A stretch of DNA of 64,000 nucleotides from Candidatus Vogelbacteria bacterium RIFOXYB1_FULL_42_16 (lineage in GTDB: Bacteria; Patescibacteriota; Minisyncoccia; Phycocordibacterales; XYD1-FULL-46-19). Positions 1,395 through 35,484 of the stretch are shown here, piece after piece. Each line of letters begins with the position of its first letter. Positions within the stretch are counted from its first letter, which is position 1. Both the position numbers and the translations under genes were made by a program. The stretch covers positions 34,667-98,666 of the forward strand of contig MHTH01000005.1 in the NCBI GenBank assembly GCA_001823055.1, given 5' to 3'. The notes beneath the pieces were generated by a model. It made no database searches and was not told the origin of the DNA. It saw nothing but the letters and a program-made list of their open reading frames with translations.

Positions 1395-1601
1395 CTAGCT
1401 TGAACTCAGGATTGGAGCCCAAGCCTGATGTAGACAGATCAGAGGTTTGTACCCGCTGTCGCTGGCCATTCGGCCAGTATCCCTTTACTGTTTGAGCAGT
1501 AATACATCTGTCGTCACAATATATCATTTATATATTTTGTCAATATTTTGTAAAGCCAGTAATTTGAATTTAACGGAACATCTGTGCTAAATTTAATCCA
1601 T

Positions 1602-3422
1602 ATGGAAAAACACCCTCTTCACCTCAAAAATCCAGAATTACAAACTTCGCCCGAAGTTGATCGGGCGGTCGAACGACAGGAGCGTCGAACCGACCAAAAA
1701 GTGCCTAATGATCCGACTGAGCGTATTGAAGCTTATCTTGACCGACTGGAGAATATTTTTCTTAATCCGGATGAAAGGAAACGCGAGCGCAATCTCGAGA
1801 TGTTTCGAGATAAAATTTATGACACTTTGGTTATCAAACCAGAACAGGTGCCTGAATCATATTTTGAACTTCAAAAACAAGTGGCTAGGGAACATGGCCA
1901 AGCGATTGAAAATATACCGCTAAATGTTCGGGACCAAATGATTGAAACGATCATTGCTGACCAGAAGCATTCTCTTGATCAGTGGATTGACTATTTGACC
2001 TCCGAAGATGTCGCTTATCCGCCTTGGTTTAAATATTTGGTCTGGCGAAATGTTATCAAACTTTCTCAATTTGATAAAACCCTCGGTAAATTCAAGGATC
2101 GCACTGAATCAACAGTGGCTCCTTATCCAGATATTTATCGCGCGCCATTAGCGAAAATTCTCGATATCTATGAGCAAGCGATCAAAGACAAAACCAATCT
2201 TAGAGATTCTGAAGTTCAAGCCAATTTCTCTAAACGTTTTGCCAAACTTTATGCCGAGCTGATTTCAGAATCTTTGGCAGTTCGTATCGAAAACAAAGAG
2301 GAAGTCAAAGGTGTCTGGGTTAAATATTCTAAAGGTAATATGGCCGAGGCCGATAAACTCTTTGAGTCAGTTCAGGCCAAAGGTACCGGCTGGTGCGTTG
2401 AAGGTCGAACGACGGCTCAAAACTATATCAAACAAGGTGATTTTTATGTCTATTACACGGAGGACAATAATGGCTTGCCGACTCAACCTCGTATGGCTAT
2501 CCAAATGAACGGAACGCAAATTGGTCAAATTCGAGGTGTTTTGAATCATCAAGAATTAGAACCGATCATGGCCGATGTTTTGGAGACCAAGCTCAAAGAA
2601 TTTGGGCCGGAGGCTGATAGTTACCAGAAGAAGAATTCTGACATGAAAAAGATGACGGCTATCGAAAAGAAGAGCCAATCGGGGATAGCGTTGTCAAAAG
2701 ACGATTTGGTATTTTTGTATGAAATCGGTGCTCCTATTGAAGGTTTTGGTTACGACCGCGACCCGCGCATTGCCGAGCTTCGCCAAGGCAGAAATCCAGA
2801 GGAAGACATGATGACTATTTTTGAATGTGCTAAAGAGCAAATTGCTCACTCAGCAGCAGAAATTGACGATGACACCATAGCCTATGTTGGTCCTTGGAAT
2901 GTTGCTGTTTATCAAATAATCAAAAAATATCCCCAGATTCAACATCTTTACGAATCTTTTCCTGATCAGAAAATTTTTATGATGACTCAGGAGACCGACC
3001 AGAGGATCAATTCTCTGGCTAAAGCCGAAGAGGTTTTGAAAGCCAAAAATATTTATATTTCAAATTGGGCGCAAGATATTTTGCAAAAAACTGATTTTAG
3101 TCGAGAAGCTAAAACTTACAAGTTGGTTCAATTTACTGTCGAACAGCTGGGTTTTAGTAGTGGTGCTACTACTGACCAAATTTATGCCAAGGCTCAAGAA
3201 TTAGGTTTAAAACTTTGCCCAGCGGAAGTTGGTCCACGACTTCGTCTTCAGTATGATGGTAAAGATTGGAAACTTATTGCCATGAAGCAGATTACCGATC
3301 GCGGTGGCCTTCCGAGTGTTTTCTACTTGCTTGCCGGCGGAGGGCAGTTGGGGCTCTACGCCGATGATGCTCATCCGGACCGCGGGTGGGGTTCGGGCCG
3401 CCGCTTCGTCTTTCTCTCGTAA
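1602..3422 (+). CDS. DGR target (variable) protein; C-terminal ~43 aa encoded by the variable repeat; N-terminal ~560 aa of unknown function, no obvious signal peptide
   Basis: Long ORF (track start 1584 is GTG; ATG at 1602 is more likely). Its last 128 nt are the VR copy of the downstream TR. The variable codons correspond to AAC/AAT codons in the TR, and the C-terminal ...RRFVFLS tail is conserved in both copies. Confidence 0.7.
   Translation: MEKHPLHLKNPELQTSPEVDRAVERQERRTDQKVPNDPTERIEAYLDRLENIFLNPDERKRERNLEMFRDKIYDTLVIKPEQVPESYFELQKQVAREHGQAIENIPLNVRDQMIETIIADQKHSLDQWIDYLTSEDVAYPPWFKYLVWRNVIKLSQFDKTLGKFKDRTESTVAPYPDIYRAPLAKILDIYEQAIKDKTNLRDSEVQANFSKRFAKLYAELISESLAVRIENKEEVKGVWVKYSKGNMAEADKLFESVQAKGTGWCVEGRTTAQNYIKQGDFYVYYTEDNNGLPTQPRMAIQMNGTQIGQIRGVLNHQELEPIMADVLETKLKEFGPEADSYQKKNSDMKKMTAIEKKSQSGIALSKDDLVFLYEIGAPIEGFGYDRDPRIAELRQGRNPEEDMMTIFECAKEQIAHSAAEIDDDTIAYVGPWNVAVYQIIKKYPQIQHLYESFPDQKIFMMTQETDQRINSLAKAEEVLKAKNIYISNWAQDILQKTDFSREAKTYKLVQFTVEQLGFSSGATTDQIYAKAQELGLKLCPAEVGPRLRLQYDGKDWKLIAMKQITDRGGLPSVFYLLAGGGQLGLYADDAHPDRGWGSGRRFVFLS
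3293..3420 (+). repeat. DGR variable repeat (VR) at the 3' end of the target gene
   Basis: Aligns base-for-base with 3739..3866. All 22 mismatches fall at positions where the TR has A (A->G/C/T in VR). The last ~20 nt are identical and GC-rich, consistent with an initiation-of-mutagenic-homing (IMH)-like 3' end. Confidence 0.85.
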
Positions 3423-3738
3423 GTCTTTAAATTTTGATCACTTTGGATTTTTTAGAGATTTTGTTTCTTCTTACCTTTGATTTTTGAAATTTTTTTTGTA
3501 AAATTATCTAGGCTTGATTGATTCAGACGGTTACGGCTTTCTGAAATCTGGCTAGTTGGCACATATTGAGAATGTAAATGGCCAAGGCTTTTTACAGAGG
3601 ATAGGCGTTTTTCTTTCAAAAAAGAAATCAACTTGGTGCGCGATACTGGCGGATTTTTGATCCCAAATAAAATACAGCTAAGCCATTTTATCTTTTTGAT
3701 AATCTGGTCGGCAGTGACACAGATGGTTTCGCGCACAA

Positions 3739-3866
3739 TACCGATCGCGATGGCAATCCGAATGTTTTCAACTTGAATGCCGACGAAGAGCAGTTGAAGC
3801 TCAACGCCAATGATGCTCATCCGGACAACAGGTGGAATTCGGACAACCGCTTCGTCTTTCTCTCGC
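3739..3866 (+). repeat. DGR template repeat (TR)
   Basis: Intergenic copy of the VR, rich in AAC/AAT (Asn) codons in the target reading frame. ORF 3773..4048 in the track is just the TR read in the target frame. A hairpin (CCGCA-tctacaggg-TGCGG) plus T-run follows at about 3875-3905. Confidence 0.85.
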
Positions 3867-3886
3867 CAGAGTCTTCTTTTCCGCAT

Positions 3887-4210
3887 CTACAGGGTGCGGT
3901 TTTTCTTTTCCAAATTATCAGAATTTTTCTTCCAACCACCGAGCATTTTGCCAATCTCTTCGAGTTTGAGGGCGATTTCTTCACATTGACGATGGGAAAT
4001 GAGTTTGGCTTCCCATGCGACCGAGATGAGAAATTTCAAAGTGTCTAATAATAAAATACAGCGGGATATTTTTTCAATTTTCTTGTCTTTGGCGGTAAAA
4101 TAAGCGACATATGACAAATCTAACAAGTCGAGAAATTTATTTTCTATTCTGGCGCCGATAGTATGGCGAGTATTTTTGGCAAGATGAGGAACGATATCAA
4201 TCCAAATCAA
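3887..4210 (-). CDS. avd: Accessory variability determinant (Avd)-like / 23S rRNA intervening-sequence four-helix-bundle family protein
   Basis: 107 aa. The C-terminal ...LEEIGKMLGGWKK matches the EEIGKML-G signature of the Avd/IVS-protein family. Size and position between TR and RT are typical, although it is on the opposite strand. Confidence 0.6.
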   Translation of the reverse strand: MIWIDIVPHLAKNTRHTIGARIENKFLDLLDLSYVAYFTAKDKKIEKISRCILLLDTLKFLISVAWEAKLISHRQCEEIALKLEEIGKMLGGWKKNSDNLEKKNRTL

Positions 4211-4220
4211 ATAACTCTCT

Positions 4221-5246
4221 TTGATACGACTAAGGATCGAAGCATCACCGAGAGAGAGAGAGAGTAAAAGGTGGTCGTGGCATAGTTACGATCATATCAT
4301 TTCTGTTGGAAATTTGCTTCAAGCTTGGCGAGAATTTTTGCGTGGCAAACGTCGACGCCAAGATGTTCAATTATTTTCGCTTCATTTGACTGATAATATT
4401 CTAGCACTACATAGAGAATTGACTCATAAAAATTACTGTCATGGGTCATATCAGGCTTTTAATATCAATGATCCAAAACCGCGTTCCATTCACAAGGCCA
4501 GTGTTCGTGATCGACTAATCCATCACGCTGTCTATCGTATTCTTTATCCATATTTTAATCAGAAATTTATCTATGATTCATATTCTTGTCGTTTAAACAA
4601 GGGGACCCATCGAGCGATAAATCGTCTACGAATTTTTGGTCGAAAAATTTCGCAAAATAACACCAGAACTGTCTGGGTGTTAAAGGGCGATATTAGGAAA
4701 TTTTTTGCTTCCATTGACCATCAAATTCTTATCAACATCTTAAAAAAACACGAACCAGACCCAGATATTATCTGGTTACTGGAGCAAGTGATTGGTAGTT
4801 TTTATACCGCTAGGCAAGGCCTAGGGTTGCCTTTGGGTAATCTGACCTCGCAACTACTAGTAAATATTTATATGAATGAGTTTGACCACTTTGTAAAAAG
4901 GAAATTGAAAGAAAAATTTTACATTCGTTATGCTGATGATTTTGTGATCTTGGGTGATAATAGAAAGGATTTATTAGAATTAATCCCAAAATTATCAAGT
5001 TTTTTGCTAGAACATCTTAAGCTTACTCTACATCCCAATAAAGTTTTTATTAAAACCTTAGCTTCTGGTGTAGATTTTCTTGGTTGGACTAATTTTCCTC
5101 ATCATCGGGTTCTAAGATTTACCACAAGAAGAAGAGTATTAAGAAAGATAAAAAAATCAAAAATGACCACCGCAACCATAGCTTCATATAAGGGCTTATT
5201 AATACACGGTAATACTTATAAACTGCGAAATCTATTTAAGCAATAA
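4221..5246 (+). CDS. DGR-type reverse transcriptase
   Basis: RT motifs present (…LIHHAVYRILYPYF…, YADDFVILG). Motif 4 reads LGNLTSQLLVNIYMNEFD, i.e. the (I/L)GxxxSQ signature that distinguishes DGR RTs from group II intron RTs (QG). The start is uncertain: the track start is TTG, only 10 nt from the divergent avd start. Confidence 0.85.
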   Translation: MIRLRIEASPRERESKRWSWHSYDHIISVGNLLQAWREFLRGKRRRQDVQLFSLHLTDNILALHRELTHKNYCHGSYQAFNINDPKPRSIHKASVRDRLIHHAVYRILYPYFNQKFIYDSYSCRLNKGTHRAINRLRIFGRKISQNNTRTVWVLKGDIRKFFASIDHQILINILKKHEPDPDIIWLLEQVIGSFYTARQGLGLPLGNLTSQLLVNIYMNEFDHFVKRKLKEKFYIRYADDFVILGDNRKDLLELIPKLSSFLLEHLKLTLHPNKVFIKTLASGVDFLGWTNFPHHRVLRFTTRRRVLRKIKKSKMTTATIASYKGLLIHGNTYKLRNLFKQ

Positions 5247-5513: not shown

Positions 5514-6707
5514 TTGATGTCTAAACGCCGTCAAAATCTAATCGTGGTTGTCGGAGTAGTTTTTTTGTTGTTGGCCGGCGCTTGGGCCTTGGCGGCGGTT
5601 TTTGGTGGTAGTGTCGAATATGATCGTAACGGCAAAAAGGTGGCGATTAAAGGAAAAGCTAAATCGTCTGTTGCGACGGTGGCGGTGGCAACCAATACCG
5701 AGCCGGTGGTGACTCACCTAAAAACTCCCAAAGCGGTCAAAGCGATTTATATGACCAGCTGGATCGCCGGATCAAAAAATTTGCGACCACGACTAATTGA
5801 TTTGATCGATCGCACCGAATTGAACGCCGTGGTAATTGATATTAAGGATTATACCGGTTTGATCGCTTTTGAAATTGATAATCCGGCGATCAAGAAACTT
5901 GGTTCGTTCGAAAAGAGAATAACCGATCTGCCGGCATTGATCGCTGAATTGCATCGGAAAAATATTTATGTCATTGGTCGTATTTCGACTTTTCAAGACG
6001 CGTCGTTGGCCAAAAAGCGTCCTGATTTGGCTGTTAAAAGAGCCAGTGATGGTGCGGTCTGGCGTGACCGCAAAGGGATTTCCTGGCTCGATGCCGGCTC
6101 GAAAGAAGCTTGGGATTATACTGTTTTATTGGCCAAAGAATCCTACGCGCTGGGTTTTGATGAATTGAATTTTGACTATATTCGTTTTCCGTCCGATGGT
6201 AACATGCGCGATATCGCTTATCCTTTTTCTCATGCCACTGAAAGCAATAAGCCGGATGTTTTGGCTGGTTTTTTCAAGTATCTATCGAGCCAACTTCATC
6301 CGCTGGGCATTCCGATCTCGGCTGATTTATTTGGCATGGTTTGCACCAATTATGATGATTTAGGGATTGGCCAAGTGCTAGAAAAAGCGGCGCCCTATTT
6401 TGATTTTATTGCGCCGATGGTCTACCCGTCTCATTACCCGACCGGTTATATGGGCATTAAAAAACCGGCTCTGTCACCTTATGCGGTAATCAATCACAAT
6501 ATGAAAGTAGCGGCGGAACGTTTAGAAAAAGCCAGCACGACGCGGGCCAAATTGCGTCCGTGGTTGCAAGATTTTGATTTGGGGGCTGATTATACGGCCG
6601 AGATGATCCGCGAAGAAAAGCGGGCGGTTTATGATAATGGTCTAAATTCGTGGATGATGTGGGATCCGGGCAATCATTATACGACGGGAGCGTACGATAG
6701 CATCTAG
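5514..6707 (+). CDS. Membrane-anchored protein, putative TIM-barrel glycoside-hydrolase-like (GHL10/DUF4015-type) domain
   Basis: N-terminal TM/signal anchor. Motifs AIYMTSW...VVIDIKDYTG...IRFPSD resemble the hypothetical glycosyl-hydrolase-like family common in CPR genomes. The family assignment is from memory, not a search. Confidence 0.4.
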   Translation: MMSKRRQNLIVVVGVVFLLLAGAWALAAVFGGSVEYDRNGKKVAIKGKAKSSVATVAVATNTEPVVTHLKTPKAVKAIYMTSWIAGSKNLRPRLIDLIDRTELNAVVIDIKDYTGLIAFEIDNPAIKKLGSFEKRITDLPALIAELHRKNIYVIGRISTFQDASLAKKRPDLAVKRASDGAVWRDRKGISWLDAGSKEAWDYTVLLAKESYALGFDELNFDYIRFPSDGNMRDIAYPFSHATESNKPDVLAGFFKYLSSQLHPLGIPISADLFGMVCTNYDDLGIGQVLEKAAPYFDFIAPMVYPSHYPTGYMGIKKPALSPYAVINHNMKVAAERLEKASTTRAKLRPWLQDFDLGADYTAEMIREEKRAVYDNGLNSWMMWDPGNHYTTGAYDSI

Positions 6708-33876: not shown

Positions 33877-35484
33877 TCACAGAGATAGAATCTTCTCAAC
33901 CTGCCCCCGATTGATTAGATCGCGAGCAATCAAAAATTGGTCATCCGACATCTCGCCGTAATTGACTGGCGAGCCGTCTTTGGCCGTCAGGACCTTAGTC
34001 GCGTCGTCGAGTGACTCGACATAACGTTTCAAGTTTCGGTCGTGAACCGGTTGATTAGACCGATCAAAACTTAAACTGAAGCGTGAGGCCAGAATCTGTC
34101 TCACTTTTGGTTCGCTGAACATCGCTGTTCCCGGATAGGCCGTTGCGGTGAACATTTTCCGGTTGATTGAGGCAACTGCTCGTTCATACTCCGGCGTGCC
34201 GGAAATAAGACCCTCGGTCGCCTCTTCAGTCTGCCAGAGGATGAAAGCCACACTGGTCTTCAGGTCATTCAGCGTCTCACCGGGATAAGCCATAATCCAG
34301 GTGCAATTGGAATGGATTCCCACTTCATGACAATGTTTAATCCCGTCCACCATCGTGCGAGGAAAGGAATGACCGTTTATTTGGACAGATCCTCCCCTTA
34401 ACATAAATCCACCCTTGTTCATCCTGGTGAGGACCGAAGCGCTGGCGCTTTCGGCGCCAAAACCAATGTAGATACAACCGGCTTTGACCATCAGGGCCAA
34501 TCGATCATCCGCTTCGTCCAAACGAGTATGAGTACCCCAGAGCAGACCGACTTCACATTGAAAGCGCTCGGCCAGAATGGCTAAACGCTTCTTGTCTATG
34601 GCGAAATTGTCATCAGGAAAACCCAGAAAATCTAGCTGATAGCAATCCCGTAGCCAGACAGCTTCTTTGATTAAATCATCAGCGCTTCGATTGCGATATT
34701 TTTGTTGACCCTGAGTGCCTCGCCAACAAAAAGCGCAACCATGAGGACAGCCTCGCGAAGAAACGGTCGTCAGACTTCGGTCCATGGTGAAGGATGTGGC
34801 AGAACTGTTATTGGCACTTCCACCCCAGACCGGAGTCTGGATATAATCCTCCAACAACGGATAGCCATCAACATCTCGTTCCAATAGATCCCAGGCGGGA
34901 AATGGCAAACCATCCAGACATTTTAATCTGGTTCCGCGATAGACCTTTTTGTCGGCCAAGAATTGATGCCAAGCTTGATGACCTTGGTCTCGATGTCGTC
35001 TCACTTGTTCGGCGATGGTCAAGATGATCTCATCTCCTTCTCCCAAGACAATAGCGTTGAGATCGGTAATCCACGATAGGAGAGTTTCTCCTATCTCTGT
35101 CGCCAATCCGCCTCCGGAAATTATGAATGCTTCCGGAATTAGTTGGCGACAGATTTGAGCCACGGTCTCTTGCCAACGGAGGGTGGTAATCATCCCTGAT
35201 AGGGCAATGATCGCCGGCTCCCCGTCGCGATTAAAGTAACGAGAAATCAGATCCCCAGCTTCTCTTGCAGTTAAGTGGCGGCCATAAGACAATCCACGTT
35301 TTTTGGCTAGCTGATCGGAGATCCGATAGCCATTCAGATCGATGATACTTACTGCGGCATTACGCTGACGCAGATTAGCGGCCAATAAGCCCGGCCCTTG
35401 GGGGGGGGTATTGGGCCTGGCGTTTTCGCGCAGAGGCAGATTGATAATTGCCATCACCAATCCATCTAAGTTCCCATTGACCAT
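33877..35484 (-). CDS. B12-binding-domain radical SAM enzyme
   Basis: CxxxCxxC-type cluster motif SSRGCPHGCAFCW. An N-terminal cobalamin-binding-like domain. Markedly higher GC than neighbours. Contains a G9/C9 homopolymer at 35400-35408 near its 5' end. Confidence 0.8.
   Translation of the reverse strand: MVNGNLDGLVMAIINLPLRENARPNTPPQGPGLLAANLRQRNAAVSIIDLNGYRISDQLAKKRGLSYGRHLTAREAGDLISRYFNRDGEPAIIALSGMITTLRWQETVAQICRQLIPEAFIISGGGLATEIGETLLSWITDLNAIVLGEGDEIILTIAEQVRRHRDQGHQAWHQFLADKKVYRGTRLKCLDGLPFPAWDLLERDVDGYPLLEDYIQTPVWGGSANNSSATSFTMDRSLTTVSSRGCPHGCAFCWRGTQGQQKYRNRSADDLIKEAVWLRDCYQLDFLGFPDDNFAIDKKRLAILAERFQCEVGLLWGTHTRLDEADDRLALMVKAGCIYIGFGAESASASVLTRMNKGGFMLRGGSVQINGHSFPRTMVDGIKHCHEVGIHSNCTWIMAYPGETLNDLKTSVAFILWQTEEATEGLISGTPEYERAVASINRKMFTATAYPGTAMFSEPKVRQILASRFSLSFDRSNQPVHDRNLKRYVESLDDATKVLTAKDGSPVNYGEMSDDQFLIARDLINRGQVEKILSL

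Follow-up and report, generated by a model that had tools for sequence, protein, structure and literature searches.

A hypermutable repeat at the avd/reverse transcriptase junction of a Patescibacteria diversity-generating retroelement, a candidate phase-variation switch for targeted mutagenesis

The 64,000-nt stretch of the genome of Candidatus Vogelbacteria bacterium RIFOXYB1_FULL_42_16 analyzed here (contig MHTH01000005.1, positions 34,667 to 98,666; hereafter the window) carries a complete diversity-generating retroelement (DGR), in which a short dinucleotide repeat lies where the 5′ ends of avd and of the reverse transcriptase (RT) gene meet. The core of the element consists of a template repeat (TR) at 3740-3865 on the plus strand, which is also the strand of the RT, followed by avd at 3887-4210 on the minus strand and by the RT gene at 4221-5246 on the plus strand. 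The target gene, recognized from the listing of open reading frames (ORFs) together with the alignment of the TR to its variable repeat (VR), is located at 1584-3422 on the plus strand and encodes 612 aa, and the VR occupies its last 126 nt before the stop codon (3294-3419, plus strand). In the alignment, VR and TR show 22 mismatches over 126 nt, all 22 at adenines of the TR. Since the VR differs from the TR at adenines only, past activity of the DGR is evident. In addition to these adenine-confined differences, the window harbors an RT of the DGR type and an Avd with a four-helix bundle, and the closest relatives of the RT are RTs of loci that have TR/VR pairs of their own.

Scanning species-representative genomes with the window RT gave 79 related loci. 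In about 60 of these, nearly all labelled as metagenome-assembled genomes of Patescibacteria or the candidate phyla radiation (CPR), an Avd homologue is encoded on the opposite strand immediately upstream of the RT, and just past the 3′ end of avd, on the same strand as the RT, there is a TR whose mismatches to a VR are adenine-specific. Position and orientation of the TR are unchanged in 50 or more related loci. The order TR-(avd)-RT is that of architecture B3, to which 90% of the CPR DGRs in the survey of Wu et al. (2018, Nucleic Acids Res 46:11; PMC5758913) belong, and the window has the same order and orientation of TR, inverted avd and RT. A first-pass annotation of the window had called this architecture unusual; it is in fact the normal layout for the lineage. 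The five features listed by that annotation, namely the TR, the hairpin with a T-run behind it, the minus-strand avd, an RT TTG codon 10 nt away, and (GA)7 at 4250-4263, were all confirmed. One related locus (L019) contains a 480-nt segment in exact duplicate (778-1257 and 4147-4626), with a second avd copy (1547-1227) and a second G14 tract (1601).

The (GA)7 tract, which had been given no more than a side remark in the first-pass annotation, is real and is the most important feature of the region. Counting its final G it is a simple sequence repeat (SSR) of 15 nt (4250-4264), and it sits within the 5′ ends of both the avd and the RT ORFs, reading as (CT)n, that is (Leu-Ser)n, in the avd frame and as Glu-Arg repeats in the RT frame. 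No other such match occurs in the 64 kb of the window, and 0 of 100 shuffles gave one. At the same avd/RT junction nearly all relatives carry a tract, which can be (GA)5-21, G8-14, (GT)13 or (GT)15; it is absent only from the most distant loci (L042, L060, L062 and L074), with L058 having at most (TG)5. Over 689 kb of fetched DNA, 57 G/C-containing SSRs were located at the junction as against 11 elsewhere, and at least 5 of those 11 are unparsed avd/RT junctions. On the RT tree poly-G looks ancestral, with (GA)n and (GT)n arising inside and poly-G reappearing several times within the (GA)n clade, and most of the sister pairs compared differ in repeat length, several of them also in frame class. 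Two further observations concern the ends of contigs and genes: contigs L010 (C48, at 1-48) and L063 (G12, at 1-12) start directly upstream of the RT, assemblies thus breaking at the junction repeat, and L074 has a (GA)14 at 5540, where its RT alignment stops mid-gene.

A tract of this kind could in principle be a neutral mutational hotspot, or a slippery purine stretch that serves as the ribosome-binding site of the RT, with no regulatory role. In eight close relatives the 3′ end of (GA)n does lie 4-6 nt before the RT ATG, the position of a Shine-Dalgarno sequence, and the frame classes described below look random. However, a repeat of 14-42 nt should decay if it were neutral, whereas the position is kept at RT identities down to about 55-60% and survives at least four changes of motif, one of them to the non-purine (GT)n. 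Moreover, a ribosome-binding site needs only 4-6 nt, while the distance to the RT ATG varies from 9 to 40 nt in other loci. A general role of the repeat as Shine-Dalgarno sequence, which would fit those eight loci, was rejected on these grounds, and we consider an absence of any regulatory role very unlikely.

In the (GA)7 allele, avd is an ORF of 107 aa (3887-4210, minus strand) that starts with TTG at 4210-4208. It had been suggested at first pass that homologous cassettes might reveal this ORF as spurious, but avd is real and conserved, with homologues in about 60 loci and a match to the Pfam family PF22296 (bAvd) at E=4e-14, above the curated cut-off. The match covers profile positions 16-106 only, and the 107-aa form comprises helices 2-4 but of helix 1 just the C-terminal half. 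The first half of helix 1 is encoded by the segment GDASILSRIKESY (4211-4249, minus strand), which has no start codon in the (GA)7 allele. The 13 codons that precede TTG 4210 specify xxASIL[NSQ]R[IV]KEGY (the ASILxRIKEGY segment) in each of 28 close relatives, with an entropy of 0.73/0.38/1.00 at the three codon positions and with all six Arg codons in use at one site. This protein-coding signature is clear, and Avd therefore does not begin at 4210. The only start able to translate the segment is an ATG at 4283-4281 on the minus strand, antisense to the His21 codon (CAT) of the RT, and this only when the repeat number is of the form 3k+2; in the window this latent full-length start is out of frame by 2 nt.

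The long form of Avd does occur in databases. A 132-aa Avd (MPRPPFTLSLSLGDASIL...) is called in the (GA)8 contigs L087, L089 and L092 and has been deposited as KKQ53263.1. The 120 top-ranking Avd homologues of the protein database include 31 long forms (129-177 aa), about 65 of 107 aa and about 10 of 115 aa; the 31 long ones begin with M[TP]RPxF(LS)n..ASIL or contain PPP(P). In an AlphaFold2 model of one long homologue (P0033; 71% identical; mean predicted local distance difference test score, pLDDT, 81), residues 1-15, including (LS)n, are disordered and helix 1 spans residues 19-36. The short Avd would begin at residue 28 of this model, and half of helix 1 would then be lost. Whereas a sequence search of Avd against the PDB gave no Avd hit, a fold search with the P0033 model matched Bordetella Avd (4DWL/8UBE) with template modelling (TM) scores of 0.84-0.88 and root-mean-square deviations of 1.5-2.2 Å.

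The RT ORF of the (GA)7 allele (4221-5246, plus strand) encodes 341 aa from TTG 4221, matches Pfam RVT_1 at 4e-26, and contains the motifs LGNLTSQ and YADD; its TTG and that of avd (4210-4208) are 10 nt apart. The proposal of the first-pass annotation that the RT might start further downstream did not hold when checked against relatives. No other in-frame ATG, GTG or TTG is present in the window between 4221 and the conserved RT N-terminus, and at 4269-4271, four codons before His21, where many relatives carry the RT ATG, the window has AGG; a start downstream of 4221 was rejected on this basis. The ATG is found at this position in L002, L007, L008, L011, L014, L027 and L028, and one codon later in L018, while L050, L034 and L025 have, like the window, AGG or AAG. 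When GTG and TTG are counted as well, a start for the RT is available between the repeat and His21 in 15 of 29 clade loci, and in eight of these it is an ATG. Since the RT's own ATG is replaced by AGG, translation of the window RT would depend on starts upstream of the repeat. Two ATGs, at 4163 and 4184 (4163-4186, plus strand), are latent there: they are in the RT frame only in 3k+2 alleles, giving an RT of 361 or 354 aa. ATG 4184 is antisense to the His9 codon of avd and is in frame in all class-1 relatives, and the 361-aa ORF is present in the (GA)8 contig L089. In the (GA)7 allele, the conserved ATG 4184 opens instead an ORF of 27 codons with its stop (TAA, 4265-4267) right after the repeat, and in relatives that keep the RT ATG the stop of this ORF lies 1-4 nt before that ATG, an arrangement that suggests possible translational coupling. 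A consensus promoter scan gave no convincing promoter for either avd or RT.

Other assemblies of the source organism, recovered by lookup of the downstream DUF4015 gene, provide natural alleles of the repeat. Four contigs (L089, which is NCBI LBUB01000002.1, L092, L090 and L095) match the window at 100% identity over 6.6-8.2 kb and depart from it in repeat number only, which is (GA)8 in L089 and L092 and (GA)10 in L090 and L095; up to 8,191 bp were compared and no further difference was seen. With collapsed places counted, about 13 contigs carry 7 units, about 6 carry 8 and about 4 carry 10; an exact-pattern scan of metagenome contigs for further alleles gave 0 hits. A second species, found via Avd P0027, has G9, G10 and G11 alleles in contigs that show 0 mismatches over lengths of 1.7-3.3 kb. 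Errors are common in homopolymers and short repeats, and contigs L010 (C48) and L063 (G12) break at the tract. However, the alleles recur in independent assemblies, (GA)8 in NCBI, JGI and ENA and (GA)10 in JGI and ENA, and a read is much longer than a tract of 14-20 nt, such that sequencing or assembly artefacts as the source of the length differences can practically be discounted.

The consequences of repeat number were computed directly for (GA)7-10, and the long ORFs were seen in L089. With (GA)7 or (GA)10 (3k+1, the state of the window), RT is read from TTG 4221 and Avd exists only as the truncated 107-aa form. With (GA)8 (3k+2), RT is read from ATG 4163/4184 (361/354 aa) and Avd, 132 aa, from its ATG, and the two genes overlap by about 120 nt. 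With (GA)9 (3k), neither RT nor Avd has a start. Gene calls shift with the allele: avd 107 and RT 341 aa in (GA)7, 132 and 310 aa in (GA)8, and 107 and 343 aa in (GA)10. Since the calls for avd (107, 115 or 132 aa) and RT (310, 341 or 343 aa) vary in this way, annotated start codons are not trustworthy here. This also bears on the 10-nt gap between the two starts, in which the first-pass annotation had seen no room for two divergent promoters: the start-codon geometry is indeed problematic, but the gap is not a true intergenic region, avd continuing upstream through the repeat. Judged by the reading frames, it is an allele-specific artefact of ORF calling, and the two genes overlap head-to-head. 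A slippable tract in the 5′ coding region, polymorphism of repeat number among near-identical genomes, and a resulting change of frame or start, three of the properties by which contingency loci are recognized, are found at this junction; a fourth, frequent reversible switching within a clone with an on/off phenotype, would have to be added for a phase-variable locus in the full sense.

The other part of the element with conserved structure is the TR RNA. Upstream of the TR, a leader with conserved motifs extends over 3669-3726 on the plus strand, with AAAATACAGC at 3669-3678 and GGCAGTGACACAGATGG at 3710-3726. A leader-like motif 11-38 nt upstream of the TR matches the strict pattern in 26 of 57 loci and has near-matches by eye in most others; these motifs probably belong to the leader of the DGR RNA or to its promoter. 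An Rfam scan of 3300-4400 gave no match at E<=1. A 144-aa ORF on the minus strand (3452-3886) is called in every public assembly of the source organism. Lacking a Pfam hit and lying antisense to the TR and its leader, it is almost certainly spurious. A pairing between the (GA)n RNA and the 3′ end of the TR, which is rich in pyrimidines, was considered as a function for the repeat and rejected: poly-G and (GA)n loci share TR ends and there is no covariation. In a separate test, RNAduplex energies were no better than those of shuffled controls in most loci, the window included.

Downstream of the TR, folding of the RNA, as proposed at first pass, yielded a stem-loop of 8 bp with a folding energy of -11 kcal/mol (z=-2.9 versus shuffles). 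The element as a whole extends over 3881-3909 on the plus strand; its G+C-rich stem and 3-nt loop, CCGCATCT-ACA-GGGTGCGG, occupy 3881-3899, starting 15 nt after the TR, and are followed by the T-run TTTTTCTTTT. A G+C-rich stem-loop directly 5′ of a U-run on the transcribed strand is the sequence signature of a Rho-independent terminator. When defined as a fully paired stem that is 6 bp or longer, includes four or more G-C pairs, precedes T4 and lies within 65 nt after the TR, such an element is found in 48 of 57 loci (84%), compared with 1.7% of random windows from the same loci. The 5′ arm occurs in 50 distinct versions which all retain complementarity (for example CCGCGAC/GTCGCGG, CCGCAAC/GTTGCGG and CTCCTCTC/GAGAGGAG), and the loop varies from 3 to 24 nt among relatives. 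Since the terminator-like element is kept in 84% of relatives against 1.7% of controls, most TR RNA would appear to end at the hairpin and T-run, which argues against a single transcript running from TR to RT antisense through avd. In Avd-containing DGRs, CPR members included, Avd-binding stem-loops are predicted just downstream of the TR in 207 of 278 cases, commonly with 9 bp and a tetraloop, according to Handa et al. (bioRxiv 10.1101/2023.10.23.563531). The position of the stem-loop in the window, 15 nt after the TR, fits this element; its stem has 8 bp and its loop 3 nt. The structure may thus be the intrinsic terminator of a self-contained TR RNA, an Avd-binding stem-loop, or both. On the opposite strand it overlaps the avd stop codon and C-terminal codons. 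The tail of Avd (...EKKNR, 3887-3911), antisense to the 3′ arm and the T-run, is invariant among homologues although predicted to be disordered. Since it is invariant in spite of the predicted disorder, a constraint at the nucleic-acid level is suggested, and the tail looks like a case of dual coding in which a nucleic-acid element imposes the conservation of the protein.

Among the properties described above, the anatomy of the junction, the conserved position of the repeat, its natural length polymorphism, the frame consequences, and the protein-level conservation upstream of TTG 4210 are established. To account for them we propose that DGR activity undergoes slipped-strand phase variation through the avd/RT junction repeat and that the window was captured in an Avd-truncated state, a reading that we regard as moderately probable. 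The element would comprise a TR RNA unit, made of leader, TR and stem-loop with U-run, followed by the inverted avd and then by RT, with the 5′ ends of avd and RT overlapping head-to-head around the hypermutable repeat. A slipped-strand change in repeat number would determine whether the first half of Avd helix 1 is joined to ATG 4283 and, where the RT has lost its own ATG, which upstream start, if any, feeds the RT. In 3k+2 alleles ((GA)5, 8, 11), full-length 132-aa Avd and an ATG-started RT would be made and the DGR could work. In 3k+1 alleles ((GA)7, 10; the window), Avd would be the 107-aa form lacking half of helix 1 and RT would start from TTG 4221; this state is predicted to be off or crippled, given that the Bordetella system cannot synthesize cDNA without Avd. 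In 3k alleles neither avd nor RT would have a usable start. The repeat would thereby act as a heritable, reversible on/off switch for targeted hypermutation. This supposes three things: the shortened Avd does not function, a lineage switches often and can switch back, and selection keeps the repeat for this purpose. More broadly, B3 DGRs, the largest natural DGR group (CPR/Patescibacteria), might be governed by such a slipped-strand switch, which a minority of cells would turn on stochastically and reversibly as a form of bet-hedging, a 'mutator of a mutator'; we advance this extension only tentatively, and hold it to be slightly less probable than its negation.

Several points weigh against the proposed translational switch. 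The VR is the same in 16 of 16 recovered contigs of the source organism (L080-L095), which cover all three repeat alleles and include strain L087, with 98.9% identity and 90 differences elsewhere in 8.2 kb. The in-frame allele therefore shows no link to VR diversification at the consensus level. Among the 28 close relatives the three frame classes number 13, 9 and 6, and the full-length-Avd frame is present in only 9 of the 28, and in about 26% of database homologues, as expected at random; hence these counts give no sign that the majority genotype is a selected 'on' state. That the 107-aa Avd is inactive is a presumption, and in 7-8 close relatives a TTG at +8 could give a repeat-independent Avd. 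Finally, slippage in transcription or translation could blur the states set at the DNA level.

The last point can be taken further. With RNA polymerase or the ribosome slipping on the tract, repeat length in the DNA would not matter: each allele would give a small, fixed fraction of in-frame Avd and RT, and the tract would be a throttle that holds expression low and not a switch. Long homopolymers are known to cause transcriptional slippage, and one could thus explain why frame classes are near random among genomes (13, 9 and 6 of 28) while the N-terminal segment of Avd is nonetheless under clear protein-level selection. However, slippage is well documented mainly for long A/T runs and not for dinucleotide repeats such as (GA)n and (GT)n, and DNA-level alleles clearly segregate in nature. 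In addition, where an RT-proximal start is missing, the locus seldom has the frame that lacks an upstream start as well (2 of 14 in class 0), an avoidance which is suggestive, though not significant. We judge a throttle of this kind to be improbable.

Another possibility is that the repeat acts on transcription or on the 5′ untranslated region, as a control region shared by the two genes, in which it would tune the spacing of promoters or the structure of the leader; what it does to the frames in the (GA)n clade would then be secondary. The distant poly-G clade speaks for this and is at the same time a further difficulty for the frame switch. There the tract is located between an avd GTG or TTG start (at +9 to +11 codons) and an RT ATG 9-40 nt downstream, that is, upstream of both starts and outside both ORFs. 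Because the tract precedes both start codons in these loci, a purely translational switch cannot be universal; a transcriptional or leader-level mechanism must operate in the poly-G clade, and it may be the ancestral one, poly-G appearing ancestral on the RT tree. Furthermore, in nine loci of this clade (L012, L026, L030, L036, L043, L048, L052, L056 and L061) a covarying hairpin of 5-7 bp (for example GAGCAC-N5-GTGCTC or AGCGCC-N4-GGCGCT) abuts the poly-G and contains, on the avd strand, the avd GTG start. This hairpin may form part of the leader and make the translation of avd depend on tract length. On the other hand, no consistent -35/-10 pair was seen beside the tract in the sequences inspected, and in the window's own clade the tract lies within conserved avd coding sequence. 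As the main mode of action in the window, transcriptional or leader-level control appears rather unlikely, but it is compatible with phase variation by frame and may represent its ancestral mode.

A close known system is the DGR of Bordetella phage BPP-1 (avd-TR-brt) and its bRT-Avd-RNA ribonucleoprotein, with which the window shares adenine-specific mutagenesis, an RT with [LIV]GxxxSQ and YxDD motifs, a four-helix Avd and a stem-loop downstream of the TR. It differs in that avd is inverted between TR and RT, and that the stem-loop is followed by a U-run, beyond which the RNA is antisense to avd. BPP-1 is not known to have any repeat-based control. Repeats of this kind are familiar from contingency loci, such as the CT repeats in the 5′ coding region of Helicobacter pylori oipA, sabA and hopZ, and the poly-G/C tracts in genes of Neisseria and Campylobacter. 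The window has in common with these pathogen loci a tract in the 5′ part of an ORF, a tolerant, disordered N-terminus, frame-dependent on/off states, and alleles among near-identical genomes. Known contingency loci mostly control surface structures or restriction-modification systems in host-associated pathogens, whereas the tract described here concerns enzymes of targeted hypermutation in free-living groundwater Patescibacteria and is shared as one tract by two overlapping divergent ORFs. Tracts outside coding sequence are also known: in Haemophilus influenzae hifA/hifB, (TA)n in overlapping divergent promoters controls both genes via the -35/-10 spacing, and poly-G/C promoter tracts occur in Neisseria. 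As in hifA/hifB, one repeat stands between two divergent genes, but the window's clade translates the tract, and its promoters could not be defined.

Already known are thus the DGR as such, its B3 layout, the stem-loop after the TR, and intragenic CT or poly-G/C contingency repeats in pathogens; what appears to be new is a DGR whose avd and RT overlap head-to-head across a conserved hypermutable repeat. In its accessible part, the survey of Wu et al. (2018) describes the gene order and contains nothing on an SSR, on avd/RT head-to-head overlap or on frame-dependent starts. Full-text literature searching found no paper that ties a DGR to a phase-variation repeat, the main paper on CPR DGRs (Paul et al. 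2017) lying outside that search. How DGRs are regulated is poorly understood, and mutagenesis that goes unchecked in a target gene comes at a cost. If DGR activity is indeed switched by the repeat, this would explain why many DGR cassettes look intact and yet show no current diversification. The frame of the repeat would then provide an on/off readout from metagenomes by sequence only, distinguishing DGR-competent from silent lineages, which could be compared with VR heterogeneity. It would also extend contingency-locus biology from the surface genes of pathogens to the genome-diversifying enzymes of ultra-small environmental bacteria.

Apart from the junction repeat, the window contains one other G/C-containing simple repeat, a G9 tract on the plus strand (C9 on the minus strand) at 35400-35408. 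It lies about 25 codons into a minus-strand ORF of 535 aa (33877-35484), in which it encodes ...NTPPQG... and which also has the motif CPHGCAFC (CxxxCxxC). This G9 tract may also switch reading frames.

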